Origin: Desulfosudaceae bacterium
GTDB taxonomy: Bacteria; Desulfobacterota; Desulfobacteria; Desulfobacterales; Desulfosudaceae
NCBI GenBank assembly: GCA_963674745.2
Contig: CAXXDV010000003.1
Span: 2,496,001-2,560,000, forward strand
Reading direction: 5' to 3'
DNA: 64,000 nt
Shown: one piece after another, positions 34,831 to 56,478 of the stretch
How positions within the stretch are numbered: the stretch's first letter is position 1
How the letters are laid out: every line of letters starts with the position of its first letter
Translations under genes and position numbers: made by a program
The notes under the pieces: generated by a model
Told to the model about the DNA's origin: nothing
The model's database searches: none
Seen by the model: the letters and a program-made list of their open reading frames with translations, nothing else

Positions 34831-34929
34831 CTGTTATTATAAATGTTTTGACGATGTTTATGCTTATAAAATGGAAAACCGTTATTTTAAATGGTTCAAA
34901 ATGCCGGCCTAACAGGAATGGGAGGAAAC

Positions 34930-36018
34930 ATGAGAACGGGTAATCTGGTTATGAAAACGCTGGTCGCTATGTTACTTGCAATGGCAGTCTCAGGAATGTT
35001 CGTAACGACGGCCCCCGCCAAGATAGCGGGATACGATGTCCTCTTTCTTCACGGATTCGTCCCGGAAGATCTGATAACCAACCCCAGTGATCAAGAAATC
35101 TACGCCAGGCGGACACATTCGTCCTACTTTCGTGACCGGTCTGAAGGCTTTTTAAACTGGTCCAGCGCCGAACGCGTGGAAGGCAAAATTTCCCAGCAAC
35201 TGTTTGAACAGGCCAAGGTCTATTCCGCCCAGGGGATCGGCGTAGAGGGGTGCGTTCTGGTGACGGTCAGCACCGGTGACCAGGTTGCCCGGCATTTCAT
35301 AGAAAACCAGGCAACGTGGCTGGAAAACGCAGGGTACCAACCGCTGAACATTATCGCGACGCTCGATTTTGTCGGTGCCGGCGGCGGTACGGATATGGCG
35401 GATCTTGCCGTTGGGGCGGCTTTTCTGCCGGCGGCAACGAAAACAATTGTCGCCCTGGCATTTGGTCTGAGCCAGGATTTAGACAACTATAACAACCTCG
35501 GTGTGATTAACGATCTTACCTATAACGGCGCCAGGAGTCTTTCAATGCAGCCCAATGACGTCCCCCGCCTTCGTTTTTCAGCAGGCGGCAACGAAGGCAT
35601 TGATACGCTCAACCCGATGAGCCAGTTGATCCGGGGCGAAGACGATACCTTAATTCCGGCTTCATCAACCTGCGGTGCATCATCTCCGGCAGGCATTGAA
35701 AGCTGCTCAGCCTATGTTAATTATGAAGGCAAACAGGGGCGTTATAACGGCCCGGACGGTCTGCTCCATAATCACTTTCCGGTCCTGATGGCCAATGGCT
35801 ATAGCCATTACACCCTTGCCGATGATGCGAATAAGGGCAAGGCGACGTATGTGTATAACAATTTTAATGCCGGCCTGAATGTTGATTTTGATACCTATAC
35901 CAAAACCGTGACCCGGAGATGGTGGCAGTTCTGGATAGAAACCGGCACCTGGCAGTATGTAACGGATTCCGACACGAAATCCGTTGTGCGGCTGGTTTAT
36001 GAAACGCTTAATGAATAA
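34930..36018 (+). CDS. secreted alpha/beta hydrolase-like (lipase-like) protein
   Basis: Signal peptide; FLHGF, TVSTGD elbow, GAGGGT, DDTLIP, YSH; GGAGGA SD. Confidence 0.75.
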   Translation: MRTGNLVMKTLVAMLLAMAVSGMFVTTAPAKIAGYDVLFLHGFVPEDLITNPSDQEIYARRTHSSYFRDRSEGFLNWSSAERVEGKISQQLFEQAKVYSAQGIGVEGCVLVTVSTGDQVARHFIENQATWLENAGYQPLNIIATLDFVGAGGGTDMADLAVGAAFLPAATKTIVALAFGLSQDLDNYNNLGVINDLTYNGARSLSMQPNDVPRLRFSAGGNEGIDTLNPMSQLIRGEDDTLIPASSTCGASSPAGIESCSAYVNYEGKQGRYNGPDGLLHNHFPVLMANGYSHYTLADDANKGKATYVYNNFNAGLNVDFDTYTKTVTRRWWQFWIETGTWQYVTDSDTKSVVRLVYETLNE

Positions 36019-36049
36019 GCAATAACACATGAAAAGATGACCCTTTTAT

Positions 36050-36087
36050 GCTGCCCTGCAACGCCTGTTGCAGGGCAGCTTTTTTTC
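36050..36087 (+). terminator. intrinsic terminator between hydrolase and partner gene
   Basis: GCTGCCCTGCAAC-GCCT-GTTGCAGGGCAGC-TTTTTTT. Confidence 0.85.
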
Positions 36088-36257
36088 AGGTACGTTGAAT
36101 ACCGGACCAGACAGTCTGAATGTACCGTTGGGGCAGTCTGACTTACAGGATGATGCAAAGACCGAACCCGAATATTTCACGAGTCGATTTGGCCTTGTCG
36201 AAAATTTTCATGAAATATCCGGGCTAATCCGGAGGAGATTTAAGGAAAGGATCAAGT

Positions 36258-37382
36258 ATGCCCCCCCGAAAGTTTGTACTCTATGCCCTGCCTGCGCTTG
36301 CCCTGCTTGTCGTTGTCGTGAGCCTCCTGATGAGGTCCCCCCAGCCAGAAGTCCGGATCAATGAAACCGCCAGCCCGGCGAAGGACGCGGCTGAACCGTC
36401 AAAAATCATTACCCGACAGGGAACCCCGGTCGCTAAAGCGGTTCCCGAGCCGGAGAAGGATGAAATTGAGATACCCGAAGGCATGCGATACCAGATGGCG
36501 GATATCGCGGAGGCATACAGAAAAAACATGCAATATCCAAAATATTCCAAACCGCTTAACGAAAATGACTGGAACCTGCTCAACCCGCGGGCATTCATCC
36601 CCAGAGAAACCCCTCTTAAAAACGGTATGTCAGCCTCAATGGTTCTTGACCGTTATATTGTCAACCGTGGCGCTGACCTGCCCGTCAAAGTCATTATCCG
36701 CGGTGGCCAGGAAGACGGTAACTTTGCTGTCGGGGTTGACCTTTCCCTGTCTGATAAGGGGGAAACACGGCCGCTGATCAGCCTGACCGAATCTGACGGG
36801 GATGAAAACACCAGCATTTACACCGGGACCATCCCCGCAGGCATGCTCAAAGAAGCCGGTCCGGGCGAAGTGGCCCTAATCGCCGGGATATCCTTTGCAA
36901 ACGGCGATCAGGCCAGCACTTCCGCCGCTGTAAAGGTATATGAGAACACGGCCACTCTGACGCGCCTGGGCGAACCCTATGTTGACGGGGCGGACCTGGT
37001 CATACCGGCCTACCTGGACGTCGAAAAACCGGGGAGATACCGTTTCCGGGCCAATCTGTTTGACGAATCCGGCGGTCAGCCGATCAGCCACCTGAATTCG
37101 GTGTTCACCCTGACCCGGGAAGACAATGAAGGCCTGGTCCGGGTTCATGCCGCCACCCTGAGGGCCAAGGGCAGTCCCGGCCCCTACCTGTTAAAAGACA
37201 TCAATATCACCATGCCTCCCCCAGGCCCCGGGGATACGACAGGGTATGCGTCCTCGACAGCGGAATCGTTCATCATCCGGGGCTGTGACCTGGACCGTTA
37301 CAGCGACGAACCCTATGAAAATCCGCAAAACAACCAGCGGCTTGAGTTCCTGCAGAAGATGGCGGCAGGAGGTAATTCATAA
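36258..37382 (+). CDS. single-TM anchored periplasmic protein, conserved partner of the lipase-like gene
   Basis: N-terminal TM, Pro/Ala linker, beta-rich domain; paralog at 54913. Confidence 0.8.
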   Translation: MPPRKFVLYALPALALLVVVVSLLMRSPQPEVRINETASPAKDAAEPSKIITRQGTPVAKAVPEPEKDEIEIPEGMRYQMADIAEAYRKNMQYPKYSKPLNENDWNLLNPRAFIPRETPLKNGMSASMVLDRYIVNRGADLPVKVIIRGGQEDGNFAVGVDLSLSDKGETRPLISLTESDGDENTSIYTGTIPAGMLKEAGPGEVALIAGISFANGDQASTSAAVKVYENTATLTRLGEPYVDGADLVIPAYLDVEKPGRYRFRANLFDESGGQPISHLNSVFTLTREDNEGLVRVHAATLRAKGSPGPYLLKDINITMPPPGPGDTTGYASSTAESFIIRGCDLDRYSDEPYENPQNNQRLEFLQKMAAGGNS

Positions 37383-37536: not shown

Positions 37537-38796
37537 CTATTGCTCAATAGAATAGGGGTTTAGAAACTGCCGTCTCCAAAGAAGATTCTTGTCCACTTCA
37601 TTCAACCTGGCTTCTTCACAGACGGCTTCCCAATGCTGTTCGATAGCGGCAGTCAGGCTACCGAATGTTTCGCGGGCTTCTTCCTCAGAAAGAAGGAAGT
37701 TGTGCGCGGCCTCAAGGCACGTTTTGAGTCGGCTCAGATTGTTGTCGCCGGAAATGAGCATAGCCTGTGAAGCCTCATTGCCTGTGCGGCCTTGCGGGCA
37801 AATATCATAAGCAGGCGTCAGGGTCAGTGCGTTGCCGTCCCAAAACGCCGCGTGGTTTCGCGCATGGTCGTCGGTATTGCCGCACAGAATATTAAAGACG
37901 AGCCGGGAGAACAGCTCTTTTAAGGTATGCTTCGGGTCGGTAAAACGGTGGCGGATAATTTCGGATAACGTTTCATAGCTGGCGTACCGCGCCCTCATGT
38001 CATCTAAGCCAAGCAGCGTCAGAGCGGAGACCATGGCCTTTCGTGCCCACTGGTCACCTTTTGGCACACGGTCAAAGCGTTCGATCAAGAGAACGTCTTT
38101 GTTTGCCGCTTTGGCAAGCTTTACCGGCGCGGCATTCAGCCCGGCCAATTGGGCCAACCGCATGGCGATGAATTCAGCTTTAACGACGCTGTACAGATCG
38201 GTGCTGGATGAAAATTTGGCTACGTACTTTTTGCCCTGGTCTTGAATTAAGGCTTTAGGACGAGCGCCGCCGATAGAGCTGCCATGGAACAACGCCTGAT
38301 CCAACTCCGGTGTGAGAGGCATGCCTTTTTCGACCCGTTCCGCGGATTCCATTAATTCTTCCAGGCTGACGATATTAGCGGTACGCGGCACGTACGCTAT
38401 AGGGGAGCGCTGAAAATCAAGCGCACCGATCCGGTCCGAGCCAGACTCCAGCAGGTAGGTCAGTTCATCCAGTTCTGCTGTATCTGTTCCCGCACCCTTA
38501 AGCCCCAACGTTTTGTTGATAATCACACGCCGTCCCCACGCGTCGGGCGCGGCATCCCTGATACAGCCGGGCATGGTCAAGTCATCGATCAAGGGCAACA
38601 GCCCGGCCTTTAGCGGCAATTCGGGTTCGTAAATCGCAATCGCCGGTTTGCTGTCACCGATACGATCCAGGTAGCTTTTACCATAGTTGAACAGGATTTT
38701 ACCGTTATCCGCTTCAAGCCGTCCGGCCACGACAGGCTCGGTTTCGTCCGGCAGCCATATCCAGACAAAGGCTTCTTTCTCCGTATTAGAAGTCAT
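37537..38796 (-). CDS. hipA: HipA-family kinase toxin
   Basis: PDAWGR, GSSIGGARPK, LLIERFDR, GNTDDHARNH, LTPAYD. Confidence 0.92.
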   Translation of the reverse strand: MTSNTEKEAFVWIWLPDETEPVVAGRLEADNGKILFNYGKSYLDRIGDSKPAIAIYEPELPLKAGLLPLIDDLTMPGCIRDAAPDAWGRRVIINKTLGLKGAGTDTAELDELTYLLESGSDRIGALDFQRSPIAYVPRTANIVSLEELMESAERVEKGMPLTPELDQALFHGSSIGGARPKALIQDQGKKYVAKFSSSTDLYSVVKAEFIAMRLAQLAGLNAAPVKLAKAANKDVLLIERFDRVPKGDQWARKAMVSALTLLGLDDMRARYASYETLSEIIRHRFTDPKHTLKELFSRLVFNILCGNTDDHARNHAAFWDGNALTLTPAYDICPQGRTGNEASQAMLISGDNNLSRLKTCLEAAHNFLLSEEEARETFGSLTAAIEQHWEAVCEEARLNEVDKNLLWRRQFLNPYSIEQ

Positions 38797-39124
38797 CGCG
38801 CATCACTTTGGATTTCTTGCGAACGGATTTTGGCAGGAGCACCAGCTTTTCCCTGGTTTGACGTAAGTATTGCGTCAGTCTGTTTTCGTCTGCATCAAAC
38901 AGCTTGACGCCAACAATGGTTGCCACTTCGAACACGGCTCCGATTTCGCATTTGAGGTTGCCTTTTTCGATGCGTTGCAGCAGCCCTCTGGAAATACCAG
39001 CGCGATCGGCTAATTCCTGAGCGGTGAGCTTGCGCTCGTTACGGGCTTCTCGGATCAACGCGCCGATCAAAGCAGCCGCATCGCGGCTATAGCGTGAGTA
39101 GGTGCGTGTGATGGACTTTGGCAT
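38786..39124 (-). CDS. hipB: XRE HTH antitoxin (HipB-like)
   Basis: LTAQELADRAGISRGLLQRIEKG; overlaps the hipA start. Confidence 0.85.
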   Translation of the reverse strand: MPKSITRTYSRYSRDAAALIGALIREARNERKLTAQELADRAGISRGLLQRIEKGNLKCEIGAVFEVATIVGVKLFDADENRLTQYLRQTREKLVLLPKSVRKKSKVMRDDF

Positions 39125-39653: not shown

Positions 39654-40556
39654 ATGCTGCCTCGAAAATCCTTACATGATAACCTGAAAAAAGCACTGGC
39701 CCGGTTTCTCATCCTGGGCAGCGCTTCAGGAAATCTCTTACGTCAGACCTCGGAAAGCCTTGCCGGAAGAATGGAGAGAGTCACCATGAGCGGCTTTTCG
39801 CTGGCGGAAATCAGCGAACAAAAAGAGGAACGATTGTGGCTGCGGGGTGGGTTCCCGCTTTCTTATCTGGCCCGGGATGATGCCGACAGCCTGGCTTGGC
39901 GTAAAAATTTTATTCAAACCCTGCTGGAGCGGGATTTTCCGCAATGGGGGGTGCGTGTACCGGCTACGACCCTGCTGCGGTTCTGGTTGATGACAGCACA
40001 TTATCATGGTCAGGTGTGGAAAGCGACCGAACCGGCCCGGGCGCTTGGTGTCAGCGAATCAAGCGTTCGCCGTTACCTGGACATCCTGACCGATGCCCTC
40101 ATGATCCGTCAGTTGCAGCCATATTACGCCAATTTAAGAAAGCGACAGGTCAAGTCCCCCAAAATTTATATCCGGGACAGCGGACTTTTGCATCAATTGC
40201 TCGGTATTGATTCCATGAAGGCCGTGCTCACTCATCCGAAAATTGGTGCATCCTGGGAAGGATTTGTTATTGAACAGATACTGCAATCCGAACCCCATGA
40301 CGAAGCCTTTTTCTGGGCTACCCACCAGGGCGCTGAAATTGACCTGGTCTTACGACGTGGGGGTGACCTTTATGGAATTGAATGCAACCGAACGGATACG
40401 CCCCGAATGACGCCGTCCATAAGGAATGCCATTGCGGACCTGGGATTGAAACATGTACTTATTCTCTACCCGGGAGTGCAGCGGTTTCCGTTATCCGACC
40501 AGGTAGAGGCGGTTCCGGTTCATGACCTCGCCAAAGACAGGCCACTGTTCGTTTAG
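39654..40556 (+). pseudogene. AAA+ ATPase/DUF4143 protein with internal deletion of the Walker A/B region
   Basis: The N-terminus joins directly to RFLILGSAS; LRGGFP, KSPKIYIRDSG and EIDL are present but no GxxxxGKT or DE motif. Confidence 0.75.
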
Positions 40557-40639: not shown

Positions 40640-41695
40640 TTACAAAAGAGACAAATAATTCTGACGGTACTCACCGGGGGTAAAACCCGTCCATTTTTTA
40701 AAGGCCCGGTTAAAAGCGCTTTGCTCGGAGTAGCCGAGCAGGAAGGTGATATCGACGATAGGTATCTGGGATTGTTCAAGCAGTTGTATGGCGTGCTCTC
40801 TTTTTATCTTATCCAGTATGTCCTTATACTTTACCCCTTCTTTGCTTAGCTTGATCTGCAGGTTTCTTTTACTCATGGCCAGCTGACTGGAAATGGTTTC
40901 GATATCCGTCTTTCCGGAAAGTAAATTGTCAATTATCGCGGCTTCAACCTGTTCGGAAAACAGGTTTTCATGAAATATCTGTTTTTGAAGTTTCTCGGCA
41001 TGGGCCTTAAGTGTATCCAGGATTCCAGCGTTGGCAACCAGCACCGGCAGCGCCACGTATTTTCTATTAAAAGTCATCTTGTTTTCCTGCTGGTTAAACA
41101 GGACAGGACTTTTAAAAATACGATCATGCTCTTTTGTGCTTGCCGGTTGCGGATGAATAAACTGAACGCTGTCAAGCCTGATATGTTTACCGGTCAGACG
41201 GGTTAACAGATTATCATAATAAGCAAAATGGCCTTCGATAAAATGTCGGAGTTCATTCATATCTGTAAGTTCATATTGCAATTCAAGACAGATGGATGCG
41301 GTGCTGCCTTCCTCTGTAAAAACAGGTACGCAGACATCATGTATCAGGGGATAATACTTGCAGAAATTTGTTAATGCTTCACCCAGGGTGGGTGAGTTAA
41401 AGGTGATCACATGCATGGCATCCATAAAGAAATCAAATGCTTCACCCAGGTGCAGCCCGATATCGGGGTCATGAATGAGTTTCAGAACGGCTCTTGCCAG
41501 GTCATGCCCCTGCTCGGCGGGTAACCGCCCATTAGGGGCCTTGAGTAAATTTGAATCAAAACCCACTGTTTTTAAAAACCATTCGGGATCAATACCAAAT
41601 CGATCCCCCTCTTTGACAAGCATATTAATGAAGTCGACCGAAAAACTGGGATTTTTTATGATTTTGGCCTGGCGTCTGGTCAGCTCATTCGTCAT
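40640..41695 (-). CDS. AraC-family regulator (close paralog of 6561..7610)
   Basis: Shared segments such as MHVITFNSPTLGEALTNFCKYYPL and a near-identical HTH. Confidence 0.94.
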   Translation of the reverse strand: MTNELTRRQAKIIKNPSFSVDFINMLVKEGDRFGIDPEWFLKTVGFDSNLLKAPNGRLPAEQGHDLARAVLKLIHDPDIGLHLGEAFDFFMDAMHVITFNSPTLGEALTNFCKYYPLIHDVCVPVFTEEGSTASICLELQYELTDMNELRHFIEGHFAYYDNLLTRLTGKHIRLDSVQFIHPQPASTKEHDRIFKSPVLFNQQENKMTFNRKYVALPVLVANAGILDTLKAHAEKLQKQIFHENLFSEQVEAAIIDNLLSGKTDIETISSQLAMSKRNLQIKLSKEGVKYKDILDKIKREHAIQLLEQSQIPIVDITFLLGYSEQSAFNRAFKKWTGFTPGEYRQNYLSLL

Positions 41696-41765
41696 ATTCG
41701 GTCTCTATTTTATGGTGTGTTGATCGGCTTTCATAAGATACTCTAATGTTTTTTAAATTCATTTT

Positions 41766-41801
41766 TTCACAAAATGTCAAATCATATTCACATTTGGTCA
41801 A
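41766..41801 (+). promoter_or_regulatory. tandem-repeat operator, copy 5, upstream of the GRE operon
   Basis: TTCACAAAATGTCAAATCATATTCACATTTGGTCAA. Confidence 0.8.
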
Positions 41802-42142
41802 GACATAGTGCTCGAATATAATTTAAAATATATATTTAACCGGGCCTTTTCTTTACAAACTGGGATAAGGAATGGAACTCTACTCTCGTGTGATCAGGCA
41901 CCTCGGCACAAACTGCATCGGCGTTTCCAGTGTTCAGAATAGAGCTGTTTAATAACACGACCTTGATTGTTTTTATTTGAATTTAGGAAACGGGGAACAT
42001 TGTTGTTGCCTTAGATTGTTTTATGTGCATAATCAAATATATAGACCGTTTCACGGCAGAAGTGTTTTTTAGAAAGCAGGATGCCGTAAAAGCTTCGTTC
42101 AGGCAAAGCGAATAGTTTGCGACTGCAAATAAGGAGGGTATC

Positions 42143-44863
42143 ATGAGTGTCGGCGCGCAGTCACTTAATGTGGCGAGGACGCCTACCCAAAGGTTGAATG
42201 AGGACAGGATCTACAAAATTGTTCAGCTCAGGGAGGCCGAAGAACCGTCCGTCCATGAACCGGCCAAACAGACACTCAACCCTGATGTCAAGATCTGCCT
42301 TGAGCGGGCCGAACTGGTAACCGCGTCATACCGGCAGACCGAGGGCGAACCCTGGATTATTCGCCGCGCCAGGGCGCTCGCCCACCTCCTGGACAACATG
42401 ACCATTTACATCCTGGACAATGAACTGATCGTCGGAAATTACGCCAGCACGCCTGACAGCCTTCCCACATACCCGGAATTTTCTCACATGTGGCTGGAAA
42501 AGGGCCTGGACAATGAATTCAAGCACACCCTGGACGAGGAAGGAAAGAAGCGGCTGAAGGAGATCAACAGATATTGGGTCAACCACGATGTTGAGCACGT
42601 TCTGTACGAGGTGGTGCCCGATGAGCTGAAAAATCATCTCCACTGGAACGGGGTTGTCACAGGGCCCTGGTTCTGGCCTCTGGGGCACATGGTGCCCAAC
42701 TATCAGGACCGGGTGTTCCCGCTCGGCATCAAGGGCATGCTGGACGAGGTTGACCATTATCGTTCAAAGATATCCGAAACCGACCCCGAATACAGGGAAA
42801 AACTGGATTTTTATGAAGCCTGCGAAATCAGCGCCAGAGCGGTAACAGCCTGGATACTCCGTTATGCGAAACTGGCGCAGGAAAAGGCCGCCCGGGCCAA
42901 TGATGCCAGGCTCAAAGCCGACTTTTTGAAAGTGGCCGGGGTCTGTTCAAACATAGCCGAAAACCCGCCGCAAAATTTTCATGAAGCATTGCAGGCCTTC
43001 TGGTTCTTTCACCTGCTCACAACCCAGATCACCTGGAGTTCAGTGGGTTTGGGGCAACGATTTGACCAGCTCTTTTATTCATATTACCGGAAAGACAAAG
43101 AAGCAGGCCGGCTCACCTATGAGGGTGCGGTTGAACTGTTCGAGCACCTCTGGATCAAGCTTGACGACCTGGGCCAGATCAATCCGACGGAATCCTGTTA
43201 CATCCAGGTGGGCGGGACCAAATTCCAGAACGTAACCATCGGGGGAACGGACGAGTTTGGCAACGACGCCTCCAATGAATTGTCTTTTGCATGTGTCGAT
43301 GCCACCATGAACGTGCGCACCCTTCAGCCGGCACTCTGCCTGCGCTACCACGACAAAATCGACCCCAAACTGGTTGACAAGTCAATAGACTGCATTGTTT
43401 CCGGAATGGGTATGCCCTCGATTTTTAATGATAAAGCCGCCATTAAATACCTTTTAAGCTTGAGCTCCAGCGTATTCAAAGAATTTGAACCCGACCGGGT
43501 GACGTTGGACATGCTGGGGGTAAAGGTGTCGGGTTCCACGCAGGTACTCAGCAGGTCCGGCAGAATGGCAAGAAGGCTTGTCGAAAAAGCCCTGCCGGTT
43601 GCTGTTAAGGAAAAACTCGATAATACGCTTCGTGAGCTGCCATACTTCCTGCTGACCGATGGCGGGAAAACCGGGGCCTTTATTCGAAGCGGACTGAAAA
43701 AGATCGGGATGGATCTTGACCGGTTGCTGGTCATTCCCCGCAGCTGGGCCAGTGTGGCCTGTGTAGGCGCCGGCTTCCCCAACGGCCTGGTTATCCAGGG
43801 GACCCTGACCACAATCATTACCGCCGGCGTATTGAACTTTTTAAAATGCCTGGAGTACGTCCTGTACCAGGGGGTTGATCCGGCAACCGGCAACCAGCTG
43901 GGAATCAGGACGCCCGACCCCAGGACATTTCAGTCCTATGATGAATTTTTGGCCGCCTTTCTCGAACAGCTTAAACACCAGATAAACATGACCGGAAAAA
44001 TTTTCGAGATCGCGGACAGGCTTTACGCGGAAAGGACCCCGCGCCCACTGGAATCCCTGCTCATGAACACACCGGTCATCCGGGGCAAAGATGCGACCCG
44101 TAAAGGTGATTTTGCGGACAGTGAGATATTCACAATGGGGCCGGTAAATGCGGCTGATTCCCTGACAGCCGTAAAAAAACTCGTGTTTGACGACAAATCG
44201 GTTTCCATGGACGAGTTGATTAACGCCTGCCTTGCCGACTGGGAAGAATACGAAGACCTTCACCGTAAATGCCTCGACGTCCCCAAGTTCGGTAATGATA
44301 ACGACTATGCGGATCAGGTATTAAACCAGATGTACATTAAGGCAAACAGAGCGGTTTCCGGTATTAACAATCACCTTGGTGTGCCTTTCCGGCTGGAAGC
44401 GACCCTGGCCGGCGGGTACTTCATCGGCGGCATTTCATGCGGCGCGACGCCTGACGGGAGAAAGAAAGGGGAGACCGTAGCTGACGGTCAGCTCTCGCCC
44501 ATGCATGGGATGGACATGAACGGACCGACCGCGGTCCTCAAATCATGTTCCAAGGTCGATCCCGCCCAAAGCTGGAACCAATTGTGCAATCAAAAGATAC
44601 AGCCCGGGTTTATGAAAGGGAAAAACAGGGAGATGTTCACCCAGTATTTGAAAACCTGGGCTTCTTTCAATAACTGGCATATTCAATTCAACTGCCAGGA
44701 CGCCGAAGCGCTCAAGGACGCGCAGCTGCATCCGGAAAAGCACAAGAACCTTGTGGTCCGCGTTGCCGGTTACAGCGCTCATTTTGTTGACCTTACGCCC
44801 GGCCTGCAGAAAGACATCATCAGGCGCACGGAGCAGGACCTGGGCAGCTTCCGAAGCTGTTAA
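42143..44863 (+). CDS. glycyl radical enzyme (PFL superfamily, unassigned subclass)
   Basis: C-terminal RVAGYSAHF (Gly876), ATPDGR, PKFGND, Cys loop SVACVG (Cys540). Confidence 0.93.
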   Translation: MSVGAQSLNVARTPTQRLNEDRIYKIVQLREAEEPSVHEPAKQTLNPDVKICLERAELVTASYRQTEGEPWIIRRARALAHLLDNMTIYILDNELIVGNYASTPDSLPTYPEFSHMWLEKGLDNEFKHTLDEEGKKRLKEINRYWVNHDVEHVLYEVVPDELKNHLHWNGVVTGPWFWPLGHMVPNYQDRVFPLGIKGMLDEVDHYRSKISETDPEYREKLDFYEACEISARAVTAWILRYAKLAQEKAARANDARLKADFLKVAGVCSNIAENPPQNFHEALQAFWFFHLLTTQITWSSVGLGQRFDQLFYSYYRKDKEAGRLTYEGAVELFEHLWIKLDDLGQINPTESCYIQVGGTKFQNVTIGGTDEFGNDASNELSFACVDATMNVRTLQPALCLRYHDKIDPKLVDKSIDCIVSGMGMPSIFNDKAAIKYLLSLSSSVFKEFEPDRVTLDMLGVKVSGSTQVLSRSGRMARRLVEKALPVAVKEKLDNTLRELPYFLLTDGGKTGAFIRSGLKKIGMDLDRLLVIPRSWASVACVGAGFPNGLVIQGTLTTIITAGVLNFLKCLEYVLYQGVDPATGNQLGIRTPDPRTFQSYDEFLAAFLEQLKHQINMTGKIFEIADRLYAERTPRPLESLLMNTPVIRGKDATRKGDFADSEIFTMGPVNAADSLTAVKKLVFDDKSVSMDELINACLADWEEYEDLHRKCLDVPKFGNDNDYADQVLNQMYIKANRAVSGINNHLGVPFRLEATLAGGYFIGGISCGATPDGRKKGETVADGQLSPMHGMDMNGPTAVLKSCSKVDPAQSWNQLCNQKIQPGFMKGKNREMFTQYLKTWASFNNWHIQFNCQDAEALKDAQLHPEKHKNLVVRVAGYSAHFVDLTPGLQKDIIRRTEQDLGSFRSC

Positions 44864-44898
44864 CCCGAATATTTACCGTCCCTAAAAAACCGTTTACG

Positions 44899-45888
44899 AT
44901 GTTCGACAAATTAAAACGCTTTTCCGGTAATTTTATAAGAACGTCTTCGGGCAAATCCCGTGAACCCGATGTCGCAGGCCGTATTTTTAATATCCAGAAG
45001 TTCAGTATTAACGATGGCCCGGGAATCAGGACCACTGTTTTTTTTAAAGGGTGCCCGCTGCACTGTGCCTGGTGCTCCAACCCGGAATCGATCAATCCCA
45101 ACCCCGAACTGATAACCAACTTTCAGGTCTGCGTCCACTGCAACCAATGCGTCGAGGCATGCACGCAAAACGCCATCATTGTAGAAAATTCCGAAAACAG
45201 CAGACCGGTGAGATCGATCAACCGCGAGAAGTGCAACGCATGCATGGATTGCGTCAAAAACTGTACCTCGGGTGCCCTGCGCTCTACAGGAAGTACTGTC
45301 TCTGCAAAAGCGGTTCTGGAAAAGGTCGAGCAGGACGTACCTTTTTACAACAACAGCGGTGGCGGGATCACCCTCTCCGGAGGCGAGCCCTTGCTTCAGC
45401 CTGAGTTTGCCCTTGCCATCCTGAAGCTCAGCAAGAGAAAAAAAATTCACACGGTTCTGGATACCAGCGGCTACGCTCAGAAAGAAGTCTTCAAAACCGT
45501 GCTGCCGTTTCTTGACCTGGTCATGTTTGACGTTAAGCATATGGATCCGGGAATTCACAAAAAATATACCGGGGTGGACAACAGGATAATTCAGGAAAAT
45601 CTCGGGTACCTGAACGGGAAAGTCAATATCTGGCTGCGCGTGCCTTTGATTCCGGGGTTCAACGATGACCAAGAAACGATTATCAAAATACTGGACCTGG
45701 CCGGGGATCTTTGTATAGAAAAGCTCTTTTTCCTGCCTTACCATCAATGGGGGATCGGTAAGTATTCGGGTTTGGGAAGAACATATACATTATCTGGTTT
45801 GGAGTCCATCCCTGATGAGAAAATTGAAGTTATAAGACATTTATGTAAATCCAGGAAAATCCGCAATTATGATATCGAACAGGGATAA
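44899..45888 (+). CDS. GRE-activating radical SAM enzyme with 2x[4Fe-4S] insert
   Basis: DGPGIRTTVFFKGCPLHCAWCSNPES, CVHCNQCVEAC, CNACMDCVKNC, GGITLSGGEP. Confidence 0.95.
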   Translation: MFDKLKRFSGNFIRTSSGKSREPDVAGRIFNIQKFSINDGPGIRTTVFFKGCPLHCAWCSNPESINPNPELITNFQVCVHCNQCVEACTQNAIIVENSENSRPVRSINREKCNACMDCVKNCTSGALRSTGSTVSAKAVLEKVEQDVPFYNNSGGGITLSGGEPLLQPEFALAILKLSKRKKIHTVLDTSGYAQKEVFKTVLPFLDLVMFDVKHMDPGIHKKYTGVDNRIIQENLGYLNGKVNIWLRVPLIPGFNDDQETIIKILDLAGDLCIEKLFFLPYHQWGIGKYSGLGRTYTLSGLESIPDEKIEVIRHLCKSRKIRNYDIEQG

Positions 45889-46127
45889 TCCGGGCCCCTA
45901 TCATATCTCATTTTTTTACATTCATTTTTTCGCAAGAAGTACAGGGTAATGCAGATAAAAAATTTGCACGACAAAAAGGAATAGCAAAAGTGGCCGTCAG
46001 CAGATCTTTTTTTTGAAGATGATGTCGGAACGGCATGGATAAAATGGTTCATAAATAGTTATTTCCTGCGTTACAGGTAATTTTTTAGGGTAAAAAGAGA
46101 ACCAGAAAACCATTATGCGAAAGGCCT

Positions 46128-47207
46128 ATGACCAGCAAAGCCGAAAAATTACCTTCACCTGAAAAAAATAACGGGTTAAAGACGGATTCACCGAAAACCA
46201 GCGGCGCTTTTCAATCGGGGATAAAAAGAGCCCTGCCCCTGGTCGTGAGCGGCCTGCTCCTTTATTATTATTTTCGCGACCAGGACTGGGGTTCCCTGCT
46301 GGCCGCCGCCGGCAGGGCGGAAATAACAACGGCTGTCCTGGCCATCCTGATCCCCCAGTTAATCATCTGGATTTTTGACGTGTTGATAATCGATCGTCAC
46401 TTTCGCTGGTTCCACGCCCCATTTGACTGGCGCGCTTTCTTCCGGGTGCGCGGCGCCTTCTACATCATCCTTCTCGTCAACTACACCATCGGCGGCGGAG
46501 GGCTGCTGCTTTACCTGAAGCGCAAAACAGGCATGACCTGGGCAAGGTTGATGGGGATCGGCCTGTTCCGTTTCGGGCTGACCATGTTCGGCCTCTGCCT
46601 GCTCCTGATCCCGGCCACACTGGCCATGCAGTATTACGGCCTGGCAGCCAGGGCCCGGCTCAACATGCACCTCTGGTGGGCGGGGCTGATATTCAGCACC
46701 CTGTGGATGATTGAATCATGGACGTACTGGCACCACAAGCGCGGCGCCGGTCTCAGCAGCCTGCTCGCCGGCAACCGGGAAAGCGAGTTCTGGACAGCGT
46801 TTCAGAATGCATCCAAAAGGCAGTGGTTCCTTACCTGGGCCATGGGGCTGCCGCCGATTTTCATCATGCTCTCCGGTGTCTATATTCTGGCACTGGCGTT
46901 CAACATCCGCATTCCCTTGCCGGAATATATTGTCGTTGCGCCACTGATGTTTGTGATTGCAGACCTGCCGGTTTCATTCGGCGGGTTCGGCACCATGACC
47001 ATGGCCTGGTTCCTGTTCTTTGGTGATTACGGGGCAAGCGAAAATATCGCGGCACTGACCCTTTTTCTGCCGACCGTTCGCGCGATCATCAGGGCCGCCA
47101 TAGGGATGGTTTCACTGCCGTTCGCCATGAAAGACATCCCGACGCTGCTCAACGGCGGTATGCAGGGAACAGCGGATCAACCACAGCCGGAACCCGGAGA
47201 AGCATGA
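46128..47207 (+). CDS. LPG-synthase TM/flippase-like membrane protein
   Basis: About 8 TM; LPVSFGGFG resembles the PxxxGGxG family motif. Confidence 0.65.
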   Translation: MTSKAEKLPSPEKNNGLKTDSPKTSGAFQSGIKRALPLVVSGLLLYYYFRDQDWGSLLAAAGRAEITTAVLAILIPQLIIWIFDVLIIDRHFRWFHAPFDWRAFFRVRGAFYIILLVNYTIGGGGLLLYLKRKTGMTWARLMGIGLFRFGLTMFGLCLLLIPATLAMQYYGLAARARLNMHLWWAGLIFSTLWMIESWTYWHHKRGAGLSSLLAGNRESEFWTAFQNASKRQWFLTWAMGLPPIFIMLSGVYILALAFNIRIPLPEYIVVAPLMFVIADLPVSFGGFGTMTMAWFLFFGDYGASENIAALTLFLPTVRAIIRAAIGMVSLPFAMKDIPTLLNGGMQGTADQPQPEPGEA

Positions 47208-47230
47208 GCCGGGCCGGCGTTCCATTTATC

Positions 47231-49294
47231 TTATCTCTTGCTGCCATAAGGGATACCCAGTTTGTTCATCCTGTTCCGGAGGGTGCCGGGTTTTATTTTC
47301 AGCATTTCAGCAGCGCCCCCGGGGCCGTTTATCTTGCCGCCTGCAAGGGCCAGCACTTTTGTGATATGCTTGATATATACCTTATCCATTTCCAGGTCCT
47401 CATTTTCAGCATTCTCGCTGTCCGGTGAAGCGTTAATCGGCAGCCGGAGGCCAATGTTCTGAAAAGAGAGTGCTCCCCCCTTGCAAAGAATCAATTCCCT
47501 TTCAATAATATTCTCCAGTTCTCTTACGTTACCCGGCCATTCATAATTGAACAGCCTGTCAATGGCATCGGGAGAGAGAGATGGTTTGTTTTTGAGATTC
47601 AGTTCCCGGGATTTCTTCTCAATGAAATGATTCACCAGGGCCGGAATATCCGAACGCCTCAATCTCAGAGGCGGAATCCGGATGGGGAAGACGTTCAGGC
47701 GGAACCACAGGTCCTCCCTGAACTGCCCGGATGCCACCAGTTCTTCCAGGTTGCGATGGGTGGCGGCGATGATGCGGACGTCAACAGGTATGGTTTCCGT
47801 TCCGCCAACACGTTCGATGACTTTATTCTGAATCACCCGGATCAGACGGACCTGGGCCTGGAGGGTCATTTCTGCGATTTCATCCAGAAAGATCGTTCCG
47901 CCATTGGCCCGTTCGAAGCGGCCAATTCCCCGGGATTCAGCGCCGGTGAACGAGCCCTCCTCATGACCGAACAGTTCGCTGTCCACCAGCGTTTCCGGTA
48001 TGGCGCCGCAATTGACCTTGATCAAGGGACCGTCCCTTCTGAATGATTTCCAGTGGATGAAATTAGCAATCATTTCCTTGCCCACGCCGGTTTCACCCAG
48101 CAGCAAGACCGGGCTGTCCTTATTGGCAACGAGACGGGCATTTTCCACAACCGTTTTAAGACCCGAGGTTTCACCGACAAGAATATCCTCCCTGGTCTCC
48201 TGCAGTTCTTCCTGAAGTGCCGCCCTCTCTTGTTCGAGGATATTCTTCAGCTCGATGATTTCGCGGTTCTTGATATGATTTGAAAGCGCCAGGGCAAAAA
48301 GATCATGGAGCATTGAAAACCAGTGCCTGTGTTCTTCCGTATAGGCGTTTTTTCCTTCGGTAATGACGGAAGCGATGCCCAGCGGCTCCCTGTCATGCAT
48401 AAGGAACATGGTAAGCGCCGACCAGTTGGCACCGTACATTTCCACATAACGGTTCAGGGCGGGGAATCTTTCGGGTTGATTGATAATAACAACTTTGGGA
48501 GAAGTTGTCTTTCCCTCGGGACTCAGATGTTCTGTATACCGGGTCAACAGCTCAGTATTGAAATAGTCAAAAACCCCGTTCGGACTGACCCCGATAAAAC
48601 CGTCCATCGGGTTTGTAAAATGCTTGTGAACGGTAAGCATGGCAACCGGCATAAACCGGCTGAGGTATTGCAGGCAGTGCAAAACACCGGCTTCAAGATC
48701 AAGATGACCGCATAACCGTTTGGTGACCTGGCGGAAGAATTCATATTTATCGCCCACAGGTTCTTTCTGACCGGGTCCGGCGGATTTTCCGGCATAATCC
48801 TCAATGACGGCATTCAGAAACCATTTATGCTCATTATACAAACCAAAAACCTGGCGGGCATGGTTTTCTGTAAACCGGTTCCTGCCTCTGGCAACAAAAA
48901 AGATTGCCCCGTAAGCGACAGATCGTTTTTTAAAGACTGTACCCAGCGCAGACCAGTCCGAAAAGCTGAATCCTGTCGCGATATAGTTCCCGATCGGGTC
49001 CATTTCCGGTTCATTAATAATGTATGTGTCTGGCAAGCTCCGGGTTTTCGATAGCTGATGGATTTCTTCGGGAACCGAAAATAAAAAATTTGTTTTCTCA
49101 CAACCTGTGTCAGCGGCCTGGGCAATGAACCGTACCACATGCCGGTCAGAATCATATTGAAACATGTTCATCCGATCAACAGGCAGTATCTGGCGAAGAT
49201 AACCATAGAACGCGTATAGCGCCTCGTAGATGTCCCCGCCCGAGGCTGCATGCCGCATTATCCGTTTCAAATCACTGTCTGGTTTGTTTTTCAT
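47231..49294 (-). CDS. sigma-54 enhancer-binding protein (GSFTGA variant)
   Basis: [31 protein letters not shown], Fis HTH. Confidence 0.93.
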   Translation of the reverse strand: MKNKPDSDLKRIMRHAASGGDIYEALYAFYGYLRQILPVDRMNMFQYDSDRHVVRFIAQAADTGCEKTNFLFSVPEEIHQLSKTRSLPDTYIINEPEMDPIGNYIATGFSFSDWSALGTVFKKRSVAYGAIFFVARGRNRFTENHARQVFGLYNEHKWFLNAVIEDYAGKSAGPGQKEPVGDKYEFFRQVTKRLCGHLDLEAGVLHCLQYLSRFMPVAMLTVHKHFTNPMDGFIGVSPNGVFDYFNTELLTRYTEHLSPEGKTTSPKVVIINQPERFPALNRYVEMYGANWSALTMFLMHDREPLGIASVITEGKNAYTEEHRHWFSMLHDLFALALSNHIKNREIIELKNILEQERAALQEELQETREDILVGETSGLKTVVENARLVANKDSPVLLLGETGVGKEMIANFIHWKSFRRDGPLIKVNCGAIPETLVDSELFGHEEGSFTGAESRGIGRFERANGGTIFLDEIAEMTLQAQVRLIRVIQNKVIERVGGTETIPVDVRIIAATHRNLEELVASGQFREDLWFRLNVFPIRIPPLRLRRSDIPALVNHFIEKKSRELNLKNKPSLSPDAIDRLFNYEWPGNVRELENIIERELILCKGGALSFQNIGLRLPINASPDSENAENEDLEMDKVYIKHITKVLALAGGKINGPGGAAEMLKIKPGTLRNRMNKLGIPYGSKR

Positions 49295-49400: not shown

Positions 49401-51159
49401 CAGGCTGTCCAACAACCTGTTGTTTGAGCCCCCGCGTTCATGTTTGAAAATTGTAAATTTTTCCTTTAAAGATAGCTAAAAAATTAAATTATATACTTGA
49501 TTTTATTGAAAAAATATTATATTTATAACTCCAAGTCAATCTTATTTCGAGGAGTTTATTTTGAGCGTCCGTGAACCCAAAAACGTCAGGCCTTATTGCC
49601 AAAACCAAAGTCTTTTGTTTCCTCCCAACCTGCTGGACTTTATCCAACATGATGACCTCTGCATGGTTGTCGATGATGTCGTCAACACGCTTGATCTCTC
49701 CTGTCTTTACCGCAAAACATCTTATGAAGGGAACATGTCGTATCATCCTAAAATGATGTTGAAAGTCCTGTTCTATTCCTATGCCAGCGGGATCTTCAGT
49801 TCTCGCCGCATTGCCAAAGCGTTGGGTGAAAATATCGCCCTTATCTATCTGGCCGCCTGGCAACGGCCGGACTTCCGCACGGTTAATAACTTCAGGCGCA
49901 ACAATTTAAGCGAGCTTGAGGATTTATTTATTCAAATTGTCCGTCTCTGCCAGCAGCTTAAAATGGTTACACTCGGCCATATATCTATCGATGGTTCCAA
50001 GTTCAAAGCCAATGCCGCGGATCGGCAGTCATATGACCGGGCCCGCATTGAAAAAGAGATGAAGCGTCTTCTGGAAAAGGCGACGGAAAAAGATCGTGAA
50101 GAAGACGCTCTTTACGGTTCGGATAAATCCGGAGATGAACTTCCCGAGGATATCCGGAACCGGAACCGCCGTATCGAAAGATTAAAAAAACTTCGGCAGC
50201 AACTGGATCAGGAAGACAAGAAAAAACTCAATGCTACTGATCCAGAGGCGGTGTTCATGAAAACAAAAAATCGTTTTCAAACATCATACAACGCGCAGGC
50301 CTCGGTCGACGAAACATCTCAGATTGTCATTGCCGCCAAGGTGATCAATACCAACGACCGGGATCAGTTGTTGCCGATGATTGAACAGACAGCACAAAAC
50401 ACACAGGCGTCGGTCCGTATCGTAAGCGCTGATGCCGGTTACAGTTCAGTCAATAACCTTGAAAAACTGGAAGGCATCGAAGGCCTAGACGCTTACATCC
50501 CGGATGATACCTACCAGAGCCACAGCCGCGGGCATAAAGACACGTCTTTTGATAAAAGCAAGTTCATTTATGACGAATCGGCTGATGTGTTTACCTGCCC
50601 TGCCGGCAAGGCCTTAGCGTTCTGGCAAAGCAAGCAGGACAAATGCGCCGACTATCGGGTTTATCGCTGCCGGGAGTGCAAAGTCTGTCCGCATTTTGGA
50701 GAGTGCACCAAAAACAGACGAGGACGGACCATCTGGCGGATGGTGGGAGAAGAACGGATCAAAGCCATGCGCTCAAAGCTGGACAGTGACACCGGCAAGG
50801 CCATTTACGCTAAGCGAAAGCATATAGTCGAGCCTGTCTTCGGGCACATAAAAACAGTCATCGGTTTTACCGGGTTCCACCTGCGGGGGTTACACAAGGT
50901 CAATGGGGAGTTCATGTTGGTGGCCATTGCCCACAATCTGAAAAAAATATCAAAAAAAGGTTACAAAAAAGGGATTGGCCTTACCCCAATGACAGTAAAA
51001 ATGTAATACGGAGGCAGAGGAGCCTGGTTTTATGCTTCCAGCGACAAAAAAGCTTGGCGTCGAGATATTTAAATAAAATTTTCAAAGAGCAGGCGATCAA
51101 CTAACGAAATCGGACCGCATAAAAATCAAAAACATATAGGAAGGCTGCGGGACAGCCTG
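49401..51159 (+). mobile_element. IS1182-family insertion sequence, 1759 bp, 4-bp TGAA target duplication
   Basis: IRL CAGGCTGTCCAACAACCT, IRR (rc) CAGGCTGTCCCGCAGCCT; TGAA at 49397..49400 and 51160..51163. Confidence 0.9.
49561..51006 (+). CDS. IS1182-family transposase
   Basis: YHPKMMLK...SSRRI, PDFRT, IDGSKFKANA, SYNAQ, ADAGY, RKHIVEPVFGHIK, AHNLKK. Confidence 0.93.
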   Translation: MSVREPKNVRPYCQNQSLLFPPNLLDFIQHDDLCMVVDDVVNTLDLSCLYRKTSYEGNMSYHPKMMLKVLFYSYASGIFSSRRIAKALGENIALIYLAAWQRPDFRTVNNFRRNNLSELEDLFIQIVRLCQQLKMVTLGHISIDGSKFKANAADRQSYDRARIEKEMKRLLEKATEKDREEDALYGSDKSGDELPEDIRNRNRRIERLKKLRQQLDQEDKKKLNATDPEAVFMKTKNRFQTSYNAQASVDETSQIVIAAKVINTNDRDQLLPMIEQTAQNTQASVRIVSADAGYSSVNNLEKLEGIEGLDAYIPDDTYQSHSRGHKDTSFDKSKFIYDESADVFTCPAGKALAFWQSKQDKCADYRVYRCRECKVCPHFGECTKNRRGRTIWRMVGEERIKAMRSKLDSDTGKAIYAKRKHIVEPVFGHIKTVIGFTGFHLRGLHKVNGEFMLVAIAHNLKKISKKGYKKGIGLTPMTVKM

Positions 51160-53567: not shown

Positions 53568-54749
53568 ATGAAGAAAAGTTGCGTATTAAGAAAAACACTG
53601 GTTGTTTCAATATTAACCCTGTTTTTTGTCCTGCCGTCAGCAGCTGTATTTGCAGCAGGGTCTGAGCCGCCGCCGCCACAGGAAAAAGTGTATGACGGAA
53701 AAATTGCGGGGCATAATGTTATTTATGTGCATGGTTTCGACATTAGTGATCTGGCCACTAAACCCTCTGACGAGGATATTTATAATTCTGACAGGCTGGG
53801 TGGTTTCTGGACCGAAGACGAAAGTAAAATACGCCGCATGAACTGGTCGGCCGCCCATCGCGTGGAAGGCCATATCAGCGAACAGATTATGCACCAGGCC
53901 ATCGAGATTGCCGATGAGGGTTTCTGTGACGGGGGATGTGTCATTGTCTCTGAGAGCACGGGAGACCAGGTTACGCGTCATTTTCTGGCCAACCAGGAAA
54001 GATGGATGAGGAATGCCGGTAGAGAACCGCTGAACATCGTTGCCACCATTGATTTTGTCGGTGCCGGCGGCGGCACGGAAGTTGCGAACCTGATCACTGA
54101 TCTTGCAAACTGCTGTTTTATACCCCAAATTTTGAAAGATGCTGCCGGGTTTGTCGTCGGGATGGTTTTAGACTTTGACATAAGTGACTTAAGCGGTTCC
54201 GGTATTGATCCAGAGAACCTCGGCGTTGTTAACGATCTGACCTTTTGCGGTGCCAGGAACCTAGCCACGGCAAACAATGACGTTCCCCGGCTCCGTGTTT
54301 CCGCCGGGAAATTTGCCAATCCAATACTTGAACCTCATCTTGCGGTAATAAATGCTTTTCTGCAGGGCGCTGATGACACCCTTATTCCCGCACACTCTTC
54401 CTGCGGTGCTTCCTCCCCGGACCCTATTGACAGCTGTTCGAGTTGTGTTACCTACCAGGGCAAGCGGACAAATGTGAAAGGCCCGGCCGGTTTGATGATG
54501 AATCATTTTCCGGTCCTGATGGCAAACAACTATGGACACGGTGATGTTACAAATAATAATCCACTTGGTGAGGTGACGTATGTCAATAACGATTTCTCTG
54601 CCGGCCTGGATGTGAGCTTTGACACGTATACGAAACAAGTGACGAGGAACTGGTGGGAGCTCTGGATAGAAGACGGTACCTGGCAGTATGTAACGGACTG
54701 GGACACCAAGTCCCTGTCAAGGCTGGTTTTCGAAAATCTGGATGAGTAA
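53568..54749 (+). CDS. secreted lipase-like alpha/beta hydrolase (paralog of 34930)
   Basis: Signal peptide plus EPPPP; YVHGF, SESTGD, GAGGGT, DDTLIP, YGH. Confidence 0.78.
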   Translation: MKKSCVLRKTLVVSILTLFFVLPSAAVFAAGSEPPPPQEKVYDGKIAGHNVIYVHGFDISDLATKPSDEDIYNSDRLGGFWTEDESKIRRMNWSAAHRVEGHISEQIMHQAIEIADEGFCDGGCVIVSESTGDQVTRHFLANQERWMRNAGREPLNIVATIDFVGAGGGTEVANLITDLANCCFIPQILKDAAGFVVGMVLDFDISDLSGSGIDPENLGVVNDLTFCGARNLATANNDVPRLRVSAGKFANPILEPHLAVINAFLQGADDTLIPAHSSCGASSPDPIDSCSSCVTYQGKRTNVKGPAGLMMNHFPVLMANNYGHGDVTNNNPLGEVTYVNNDFSAGLDVSFDTYTKQVTRNWWELWIEDGTWQYVTDWDTKSLSRLVFENLDE

Positions 54750-54780
54750 TTCGAAAAGTGCCGGAAGTTTCGACATGTAA

Positions 54781-54817
54781 GGCTGCCCTGCAATGTCCGT
54801 TGCAGGGCAGCCTTTTT
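54781..54817 (+). terminator. intrinsic terminator, homologous to 36050
   Basis: GGCTGCCCTGCAA...TTGCAGGGCAGCC-TTTTT. Confidence 0.8.
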
Positions 54818-54912
54818 CCTGGTTCTGTAAATCCATTGCTGTCAGCCAAACCCGATTACCTGGTTGAGCCGGAAACGTCCATTCTTTTGCCAGACTCTGG
54901 AAAGGTCAATAA

Positions 54913-56442: not shown

Positions 56443-56478
56443 TTCACAAAATGTCAAAGCATATTCACATATGGTCAA
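56443..56478 (+). promoter_or_regulatory. tandem-repeat operator, copy 6
   Basis: TTCACAAAATGTCAAAGCATATTCACATATGGTCAA. Confidence 0.8.

Follow-up and report, generated by a model that had tools for sequence, protein, structure and literature searches.

The window analysed here, a stretch of 64,000 nt from the genome of a Desulfosudaceae bacterium (contig CAXXDV010000003.1, positions 2,496,001 to 2,560,000), contains a gene for a predicted glycyl radical enzyme (GRE; P0001), followed by the genes for a GRE-activating radical S-adenosylmethionine (SAM) enzyme (P0002) and a polytopic membrane protein (P0003; Table 1). P0001 matches the Pfam families PFL-like (PF02901; 532.9 bits, in two stretches) and Gly_radical (PF01228; 90.8 bits), its reading frame is intact, and its gene has a good ribosome-binding site. 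According to the available text of one recent paper, GREs are recognized by the fingerprint RVxG[FWY], whose radical Gly occupies one finger loop, and by a conserved Cys that occupies another (PMC13450708). This fingerprint is present in P0001, with G876 as the predicted glycyl-radical site and C540, which is conserved in all 30 aligned sequences, as the predicted thiyl-radical residue. An AlphaFold2 model built on 24 sequences of the clade described below (pLDDT 84.4, pTM 0.88) places C540 at the tip of a beta-hairpin (strands 536–538 and 542–544 according to DSSP) and G876 at the tip of another one (strands 871–874 and 877–880), a modelled placement that is as expected of the two GRE finger loops. 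Compared with solved GREs by Foldseek, the model reaches TM scores of 0.85–0.92 on the target side at 25–30% identity. The P0002 gene starts 36 nt past the end of the P0001 gene, and its product scores 342.6 bits against TIGR02494 (cut-off 174.35) and possesses the CX3CX2C motif plus two ferredoxin-type Cys clusters. P0001 and P0002 are thus predicted to be a functional pair of a GRE with its own activase, in agreement with an earlier note on this DNA, made without database searches, that had reported an intact Gly loop and a cognate activase.

Table 1. Features of the GRE locus and its regulatory elements; positions refer to the window.
Feature	Position	Strand	Basis
GRE gene, product P0001 (906 aa)	42143..44863	+	Pfam, NCBIfam, HMMER, AlphaFold2, Foldseek
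C540 codon, predicted thiyl-radical Cys within WASVACVGAGFPNG	43760..43762	+	Translation, alignment, DSSP on model
G876 codon, predicted glycyl-radical site in RVAGYS (residues 873–878)	44768..44770	+	Translation, Pfam, alignment, model
Insert, residues 440–533, predicted short-helix bundle	43460..43741	+	AlphaFold2 model, alignment, Foldseek
P0002, GRE-activating radical SAM enzyme (329 aa)	44899..45888	+	TIGR02494; Pfam Radical_SAM, Fer4_12, Fer4
P0003, polytopic membrane protein, LPG_synthase_TM-like (MprF flippase-domain-like; 359 aa)	46128..47207	+	Pfam, ESM Atlas
AraC-family regulator (Arabinose_bd + HTH_18), divergent from GRE operon	40640..41695	-	Pfam
Promoter/operator cassette upstream of GRE (97 nt)	41744..41840	+	Motif counts, column identity, promoter scan
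Operator copies in window	6411-6448(-), 7705-7742, 8832-8869, 26820-26857, 41764-41801, 56441-56478		Motif search

A whole-protein search of P0001 against 5.8 billion proteins recovered about 25 proteins of 873–911 aa (54–73% identity, 96–99% query coverage), which we refer to as the clade. Its members are encoded in metagenome-assembled genomes (MAGs) labelled Smithella, Desulfosudaceae, Desulfobacterales, Nitrospirae, and Geothermincolia, and across 24 aligned sequences from several phyla the radical Gly, the Cys, and more than 150 other columns are invariant. A profile of these 24 sequences matched 11,670 GRE-like sequences among 1.84 billion cluster representatives at E <= 0.001 (2,509 at E <= 1e-30). 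Among the best 150 of the 11,670, only P0024 (1,506 bits, aligned in one stretch over profile positions 8–885) and the fragment P0028 align across a long insert that is treated below, whereas the other 148 alignments break at about position 430–510; the whole clade would therefore correspond to one or two clusters at 50% identity. A literature search that did not extend to paywalled journals found no description of the clade, and a paper on Atribacteria considered as a candidate (PMC6776118) concerns, in its accessible part, a BssA-like enzyme with small subunits instead. By sequence, this clade is a rare and uncharacterized GRE subfamily. One member appears to be interrupted (L008, 9920–11986), as it consists of a 688-aa open reading frame (ORF) with a tblastn match that extends to query residue 902; this locus may be a pseudogene or contain an assembly error.

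The nearest relatives outside the clade are Glu-less GREs of about 800 aa (P0030–P0123; loci L009–L074 and L082–L141) that share 40–47% identity with it and, like the clade, have no Glu at the second position after the catalytic Cys (Cys+2). They differ from the clade, which is nested among them, by the absence of the insert, by the loop C-[MV]-x-W..PGK, by an Asp instead of Glu at position 752, and by an Arg about 13 residues past the Cys, which in 27 of 47 sequences falls on the column of the clade's G553. Their best match in the PDB is glycerol dehydratase (GDH; 473–509 bits). The group is large and uncharacterized, and its members occur widely in MAGs that belong to Chloroflexota, Desulfobacterota, and Asgard archaea.

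The GRE classes listed in the available text of Imrich et al. (2026; PMC13450708) are the formate lyases, decarboxylases, X-succinate synthases, 1,2-eliminases, isomerases, and aminoacyl radical enzymes, and the same text states that all eliminases and isomerases keep a CXE motif. In the Cys loop of P0001, ACVGAG, the single Cys is followed by Val and Gly (C540-V-G542), and the CXE motif of GDH, 1,2-propanediol dehydratase (PD), HypD, CutC, IslA, HpsG, HplG, YbiW, and PflD is absent. None of the 24 clade members has Glu at Cys+2; most contain C-V-G, and C-V-A or C-V-T occurs in three. Neither does P0001 reach any NCBIfam equivalog cut-off, scoring 459 bits for HypD (cut-off 1100), 419 for HpsG (1000), 380 for CutC (1050), 370.3 for IAD (1100), and 301.7 for the HPAD large subunit (1150). 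The two adjacent Cys residues of the formate lyases PFL and TdcE are not present, and the score against TIGR01255 is 62.8 bits with a cut-off of 994. The statement of the earlier note that the loop has neither the Glu of the GCVE eliminases nor the CC of PFL is therefore correct. Among the decarboxylases HPAD, IAD, AAD, and PAD (PhdB), of which the first three were compared, the Glu at Cys+2 (HPAD Glu505, IAD Glu502) has no counterpart in P0001, and AAD (7e7l) is 26% identical; HPAD is further characterized by a small gamma subunit. The glycerol and 1,2-propanediol dehydratases (1r8w, 5i2g) resemble P0001 in obtaining the top whole-protein scores (412 bits) and target-side Foldseek TM scores of 0.90–0.92, and in having a stand-alone alpha subunit with an adjoining activase. 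They differ from it by CXE in place of ACVG and by an identity of only 28–30%, and genes for aldehyde processing or microcompartments are not found near P0001.

When residues 520–700 of P0001 were searched alone, only MasD (9o8u) and TutD (4pkc) aligned across the Cys loop. With these X-succinate synthases (MasD/AssA and TutD/BssA) P0001 shares the GRE fold, the lack of Glu at Cys+2, an activase of the type with two ferredoxin clusters, and loop flanks that read R-x-W-x3-A-C-[VM]-[GS] before the tip and P-N...G-T after it. Taken literally, the earlier claim that the loop differs from the CMSP of Bss/Ass is correct, yet loop and flanks align best with MasD. On the other hand, overall identity is 27–34%, the P0001 loop is three residues longer, and P0001 contains a helical insert of 85 aa. 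Differences also concern residues with assigned roles. The Arg that binds the distal carboxylate of fumarate, located about 15 residues past the Cys (R508 in BSS and R492 in MASS according to the accessible text of PMC12358834), aligns to I558 of P0001; Arg occurs at this position in none of the 24 clade members, which have Ile, Leu, Val, or Ser instead. The position of BSS Gln707 and MASS Glu690 is occupied by Thr, Ser, or Ala in the clade, with an invariant Glu two residues before. Furthermore, X-succinate synthases are encoded with genes for Fe-S beta and gamma subunits (in MASS also delta), and none of these lies at the P0001 locus: as the earlier note had observed for Bss/Ass-type small subunits, no candidate ORF of at least 30 aa was detected on the plus strand in the gaps between and beside the genes from 41696 to 47230. 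None was seen at the related loci either, where ORFs of at least 100 aa were scanned and small genes could escape. P0001 thus resembles an X-succinate synthase around the Cys and lacks both the Arg and the small subunits that define this class, so that its sequence does not identify it as a canonical member. A structure annotated as benzylsuccinate synthase alpha subunit (8iof) was discarded as evidence for such a kinship, since it is in fact the eliminase HpzG according to the available part of PMC13450708.

The placement of the clade was analysed in a quick tree of 83 rows and a careful tree of 41 rows, for which the nine other GREs of the host genome (including AssA, L148) and E. coli PflB, YbiW, and PflD served as references. 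In both trees the clade is monophyletic (support 100/100) on a stem of 0.56 changes per column and nested among the Glu-less group of about 800 aa; together with this group and AssA it lies on one side of a branch (100/99.9) that has the Glu-bearing GREs on its other side. The 5.55-Mb host genome encodes 10 PFL-like GREs (L142–L151), P0001 included. L148 (C3:114649-116544) is an AssA/MasD orthologue with 1,259 bits to 9o8u, an ACMSP loop, and the Arg present, and the host is therefore probably an anaerobic alkane degrader. The host's remaining GREs all stay below the NCBIfam equivalog cut-offs.

The most conspicuous feature of P0001 is the insert between FND and the catalytic Cys. From F428 in the FND motif to C540 the distance is 112 residues, compared with 27 residues between the equivalent Tyr406 and Cys433 of glycerol dehydratase (1r8w; HMMER alignment) and an Asn-to-Cys spacing of 26–27 in the relatives of about 800 aa and in the AssA of the host. 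The resulting excess of about 85 aa confirms the earlier note, which had set the 112 residues against roughly 30 in typical GREs. Residues 440–560 could not be aligned to eliminase structures by HMMER, and the TM scores against every solved GRE drop from about 0.9 when normalized to the target to about 0.8 when normalized to the query, which indicates that the insert domain occurs in no solved GRE. Helices are predicted at residues 452–457, 464–483, 486–497, 499–504, 509–520, and 525–533, with pLDDT values of about 63–81. The insert had been described as Lys/Arg-rich and amphipathic. Both descriptions hold: Lys and Arg account for 17 of the 94 residues, the net charge is +6, and the hydrophobic moments of the helices are 0.24–0.64, only little above those of three core helices of P0001 (0.32–0.43). 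No hydrophobic stretch was found within residues 440–533.

The insert is present in 21 of the 24 aligned clade members with a length of 86–97 residues and a net charge of +1 to +15, and three members (P0006, P0011, P0019) retain just 23 residues of it. Its mean pairwise identity across the clade is 32%, compared with 62% for the remainder of the protein. In a tree calculated without the insert columns, the short forms are nested within the insert-bearing clade (100/99), and monophyly of the insert-bearing rows to the exclusion of the short forms was rejected by the approximately unbiased (AU) test (p-AU 0.003). This nesting indicates a single gain of the insert followed by one deletion of most of it, and the insert would consequently be dispensable for at least the lineage with the secondary loss. 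In a search of residues 436–536 alone against 5.8 billion proteins, none of 352 word-sharing candidates reached E <= 0.01, a result explained by the low conservation of the insert and by word seeding, as whole-protein and profile searches do recover insert-bearing relatives. The insert is a conserved feature of the clade and not a defect of the P0001 copy; the possibility raised beforehand that it is unique to this copy and disruptive does not apply. Nor does P0001 cluster tightly with a characterized GRE, its identity to every solved one being 25–30%. The new GRE subclass proposed by the earlier note is thus borne out by a separate, fully supported clade that fits no characterized class, stays below all equivalog cut-offs, and has a conserved insert.

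Positions were classified as clade-specific if their residue is shared by 95% or more of the 24 clade sequences but by no more than 15% of 47 relatives of about 800 aa and no more than 20% of 10 CXE enzymes. There are 31 such positions, among them E752, K360, Q305, Q355, Q783, W178, and G553. The column of E752 contains Asp in 42 of the 47 relatives and Gly in 9 of the 10 CXE enzymes, and E752 precedes by two residues T754, which aligns with BSS Gln707, MASS Glu690, and GDH Tyr640. K360 lies within the invariant GGTKFQ, and the adjoining F361 aligns with GDH Tyr339; we take Tyr339 and Tyr640 to be substrate contacts of GDH. W178-P179 adjoin W176, the residue found at the alignment position of Trp185, the gating residue of MASS. 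This set of polar and aromatic invariants would argue against a purely hydrocarbon pocket.

Gene neighbourhoods were examined at 14 related loci. Wherever the flank allows, an activase adjoins the GRE, except in L077; the neighbour in L008 matched Fer4 families only. A divergent regulator of the GntR/FCD type is found in 7 of the 12 loci with upstream flank (L003, L006, L007, L008, L016, L077, and L139), and L075 has a MarR regulator. GntR/FCD regulators respond mostly to small carboxylates. Some members are located near genes for enzymes acting on CoA esters, namely a family III CoA-transferase in L005, an enoyl-CoA hydratase in L080, and MaoC in L139. In L016 the neighbours comprise acyl-CoA dehydrogenases, HGD-D, and a DUF4125 gene, and L079 has a fragment of the HpaB/4-hydroxybutyryl-CoA-dehydratase type. 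Tandem clade GREs with one activase per set occur in L016 (three copies, 5436–14675) and L076 (two copies, 865–7323). L075, the closest relative (72% identity), has an extra radical SAM gene of 585 aa (4846–6603) between GRE and activase, and genes for a metallophosphoesterase and a macro-domain protein downstream.

AssA orthologues (at least 68% identity) were detected in three of five clade-bearing genomes in one search and in none of three in another, in which G008 is a doubtful holder; counting the host, four of eight firm clade holders possess one. Since these genomes are not complete and have lineage and habitat in common, this association is a lead and not evidence of function. In genome G003 (L006), AssA is 91% identical to that of the host and the clade GRE 54% identical to P0001, which suggests that the P0001 copy was acquired laterally with the island in which it resides.

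P0003 differs from the GRE and activase in its distribution. Against PF03706 it scores 23.9 bits and thus falls short of the gathering score (33.4), even though the match extends over residues 36–312 and positions 3–287 of the 302-position profile, and its ESM Atlas feature score to PF03706 clusters is 0.97; no NCBIfam family matched. The gene behind the operon that the earlier note described as flippase-like thus encodes a putative member of the LPG_synthase_TM family. The gap of 240 nt between the activase gene and P0003 contains no terminator-like site, so P0003 may be co-transcribed with the activase, and a terminator-like site is located 3' of P0003 at 47275–47290. However, no homologue of P0003 is encoded at any of 17 related clade loci (157,650 bases) or elsewhere in 1.86 Mb of fetched sequence, and PF03706 was not found among 62 neighbouring ORFs scanned at related loci. 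P0003 is therefore a local addition outside the conserved module.

The GRE operon is preceded by a promoter cassette with a 38-bp operator of two direct TTCACA...GTCAA half-sites. A sigma-70-like pair (TGGTCA, 16 nt, TATAAT; promoter scan) at 41795–41822 overlaps the 3' end of the operator, the usual layout of promoters activated by AraC/XylS-type regulators. From this promoter a leader of about 320 nt extends to the start codon, and an Rfam scan of 41600–47400 (E <= 1) gave no match, the leader thus containing no known riboswitch. The shared operator reported earlier is real: the window contains six copies where none is expected, and the entire 5.55-Mb genome seven, all within 63 kb (C3:2489722-2552478), the seventh being located about 6 kb before the window. 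The six cassettes in the window show 87% column identity over their 97 nt. Two copies are adjoined by AraC paralogues, the divergent regulator beside the GRE and one at 6561–7664 on the minus strand, which share 271 of 347 residues (78%; BLASTP). From these repeats we infer a 63-kb island, made up of oxidoreductase operons, that is controlled by the repeated cassette and the two AraC paralogues. Downstream of the cassettes lie mostly genes for SDRs, but also for an acetoacetate-decarboxylase-like protein, an alpha/beta hydrolase, a START-domain protein, a TPP enzyme, and a TAT-exported HpnE/phytoene-desaturase-like flavoprotein with a Rieske/cytochrome b module; the island further encodes OYE, an FAD oxidoreductase, and hydrolases. 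Specific names for island proteins were obtained neither from NCBIfam nor, for nine unnamed ORFs, from a Pfam scan with permissive settings. Of the lipid regulon proposed in the earlier note, the regulon is thus supported by the shared operator, whereas the lipid part was a guess, as no lipid-specific family could be named in the island.

We consider it rather probable that P0001 and P0002 constitute a stand-alone GRE and its activase and that they belong to a rare subfamily which, among the PFL2-type GREs, falls on the Glu-less side together with the X-succinate synthases. As predicted from family membership, P0002 would cleave SAM and abstract hydrogen from G876, the glycyl radical would generate a thiyl radical on C540, and this in turn would act on a substrate that probably bears a carboxylate. 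As P0001 has Gly in place of Glu, no Arg, and no second Cys, 1,2-elimination, canonical fumarate addition, and formate lyase activity are all unlikely for it. The most likely reaction would be a radical C-C cleavage or formation, such as a decarboxylation, with a partly hydrophobic substrate that bears a carboxylate, although we regard this specific assignment as possible rather than probable. The clade-invariant barrel residues E752 and K360 may stand in for the missing loop residues, and the insert could form a fast-evolving peripheral helical domain that serves as lid, oligomerization, or docking surface and would be losable and not catalytic. Several observations weigh against this interpretation. 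The AU test did not reject trees in which AssA lies outside the group formed with the clade (p 0.123), the whole-protein scores of TutD (338 bits) and MasD (327 bits) are below those of GDH and PD, and the trees contain no GDH, PD, CutC, HypD, or decarboxylase; because of these three points, the kinship of the clade with X-succinate synthases is favoured but not settled. In addition, a Glu-less loop is common among the unstudied relatives of about 800 aa and is by itself no proof of new chemistry, the pocket positions were assigned by pairwise alignments at about 30% identity, and beyond GRE and activase nothing is conserved across the related loci, so that their context reveals no coherent pathway.

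The kinship with MasD could be taken further, with P0001 as a divergent hydroalkylase that abstracts hydrogen from a hydrocarbon or alkyl group and adds the product radical to an acceptor bound in a different manner, the insert replacing the gating function of the small subunits. A Cys loop that aligns best with MasD, the grouping of the clade with AssA, the aromatic W-x-W-P motif at the place of the gating Trp of MASS, and the AssA orthologues in half of the clade-bearing genomes, host included, would all agree with such an activity, as would the CoA-transferase, acyl-CoA dehydrogenases, enoyl-CoA hydratase, and MaoC near some members, which are reminiscent of the beta-oxidation of benzylsuccinate. 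These neighbours are not conserved, however, the AssA co-occurrence is confounded by lineage and habitat, an AssA orthologue was not found in the other four genomes, and the grouping with AssA is the very one that the AU test leaves open. Since the fumarate-binding Arg is missing throughout the clade, beta and gamma subunit genes were not found, and the clade invariants are largely polar (E752, K360, Q305, Q355, Q783), we rate a hydroalkylase as rather unlikely. A similarly low probability is assigned to the idea that the clade performs an undescribed GRE reaction, with a new catalytic set made up of the enlarged Gly-rich loop and the barrel residues E752 and K360, and with the basic insert in the role of the X-succinate synthase small subunits, either as a built-in gate or as a docking surface for a hydrophobic substrate carrier or the membrane. 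Such a reaction would be neither an elimination or isomerization with a Cys-loop Glu, nor an Arg-type fumarate addition, nor a known decarboxylation. To our knowledge, every GRE clade newly characterized so far has turned out to catalyse a new reaction, and GREs perform difficult anaerobic chemistry.

The earlier note had instead suggested a possibly membrane-associated enzyme for a long-chain substrate. In its full form this would mean that P0001 docks on the membrane via the basic, amphipathic insert and has a long-chain lipid or alkyl compound as its substrate, while P0003 presents the substrate or exports the product. The positive net charge of the insert in all 21 members that have it, its maximal helix moment of 0.64, the LPG_synthase_TM-like and possibly co-transcribed P0003, an island with a START-domain protein, pairs resembling secreted hydrolases, and SDRs, and a host that probably handles alkanes are compatible with this idea. 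Yet the insert has no hydrophobic segment and is basic and amphipathic in the way of any surface helical bundle, three natural members do without most of it, and P0003 has no homologue at any of the 17 related loci. Moreover, relatives are accompanied by GntR/FCD, MarR, and other regulators and by soluble enzymes, and none of the island proteins could be assigned to a lipid-specific family. Neither membrane association nor a long-chain lipid substrate is upheld by these data, and we regard the whole scenario as improbable. Least credible of all is that P0001 represents a decaying or non-catalytic paralogue in which insert and Glu-less loop are marks of a lost function. The apparent interruption of L008 and the nine other GREs of the host might be cited in its favour, but an intact frame with a good ribosome-binding site, an activase retained beside the GRE in most loci, more than 150 invariant columns besides the radical Gly and Cys, and 62% identity outside the insert are hard to reconcile with decay.

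For a rare subfamily with its own activase, which is the reading preferred here, the clade offers an attractive combination of an intact radical machinery, a loop outside the known classes, an insert with natural insert-less variants, and tandem paralogues that share an activase. The window contributes a near-complete genome, a defined inducible promoter, and evidence of a single gain and a single loss of the insert. With a completeness of 99.96% in 3 contigs, the host genome is perhaps the most practical entry point, and because the sequencing runs that contain the locus, among which no RNA run was listed, are labelled by organism and not as metagenome, a culture or enrichment may exist. Used as a reporter, the AraC-type promoter cassette could reveal the inducer and, through it, the substrate. 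Should the chemistry prove new, the GRE scheme would gain a class, and the anaerobic degradation of hydrocarbons or organic acids possibly a new route.

Further observations concern the remaining GREs of the host and the structure of the island. Three GREs of about 1,000 aa (L144, L145, and L146) form one clade (100/100); their Cys loop is GCVEPT, RISGYNAYF takes the place of RVxGY as the Gly motif, and their N-termini are extended by about 190 aa. Within the island, two segments are duplicated (8842–11721 and 56310–58261; 34891–37382 and 53568–56046). The duplicated ORFs, none of which has a Pfam family, are 82% (10855/57371), 62% (36258/54913), and 48% (34891/53568) identical, and the last pair has signal-peptide-like N-termini. 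The idea that 34891/36258 and 53568/54913 are lipase/foldase pairs was dropped as unsupported, as it relied on an HGF-type motif only. The GRE operon is flanked by a HipA/HipB-type toxin-antitoxin pair (37537–39124, minus strand), a DUF4143 ATPase (39654–40556), and a DDE transposase (49561–51006), a setting that fits a mobile or recently rearranged island.

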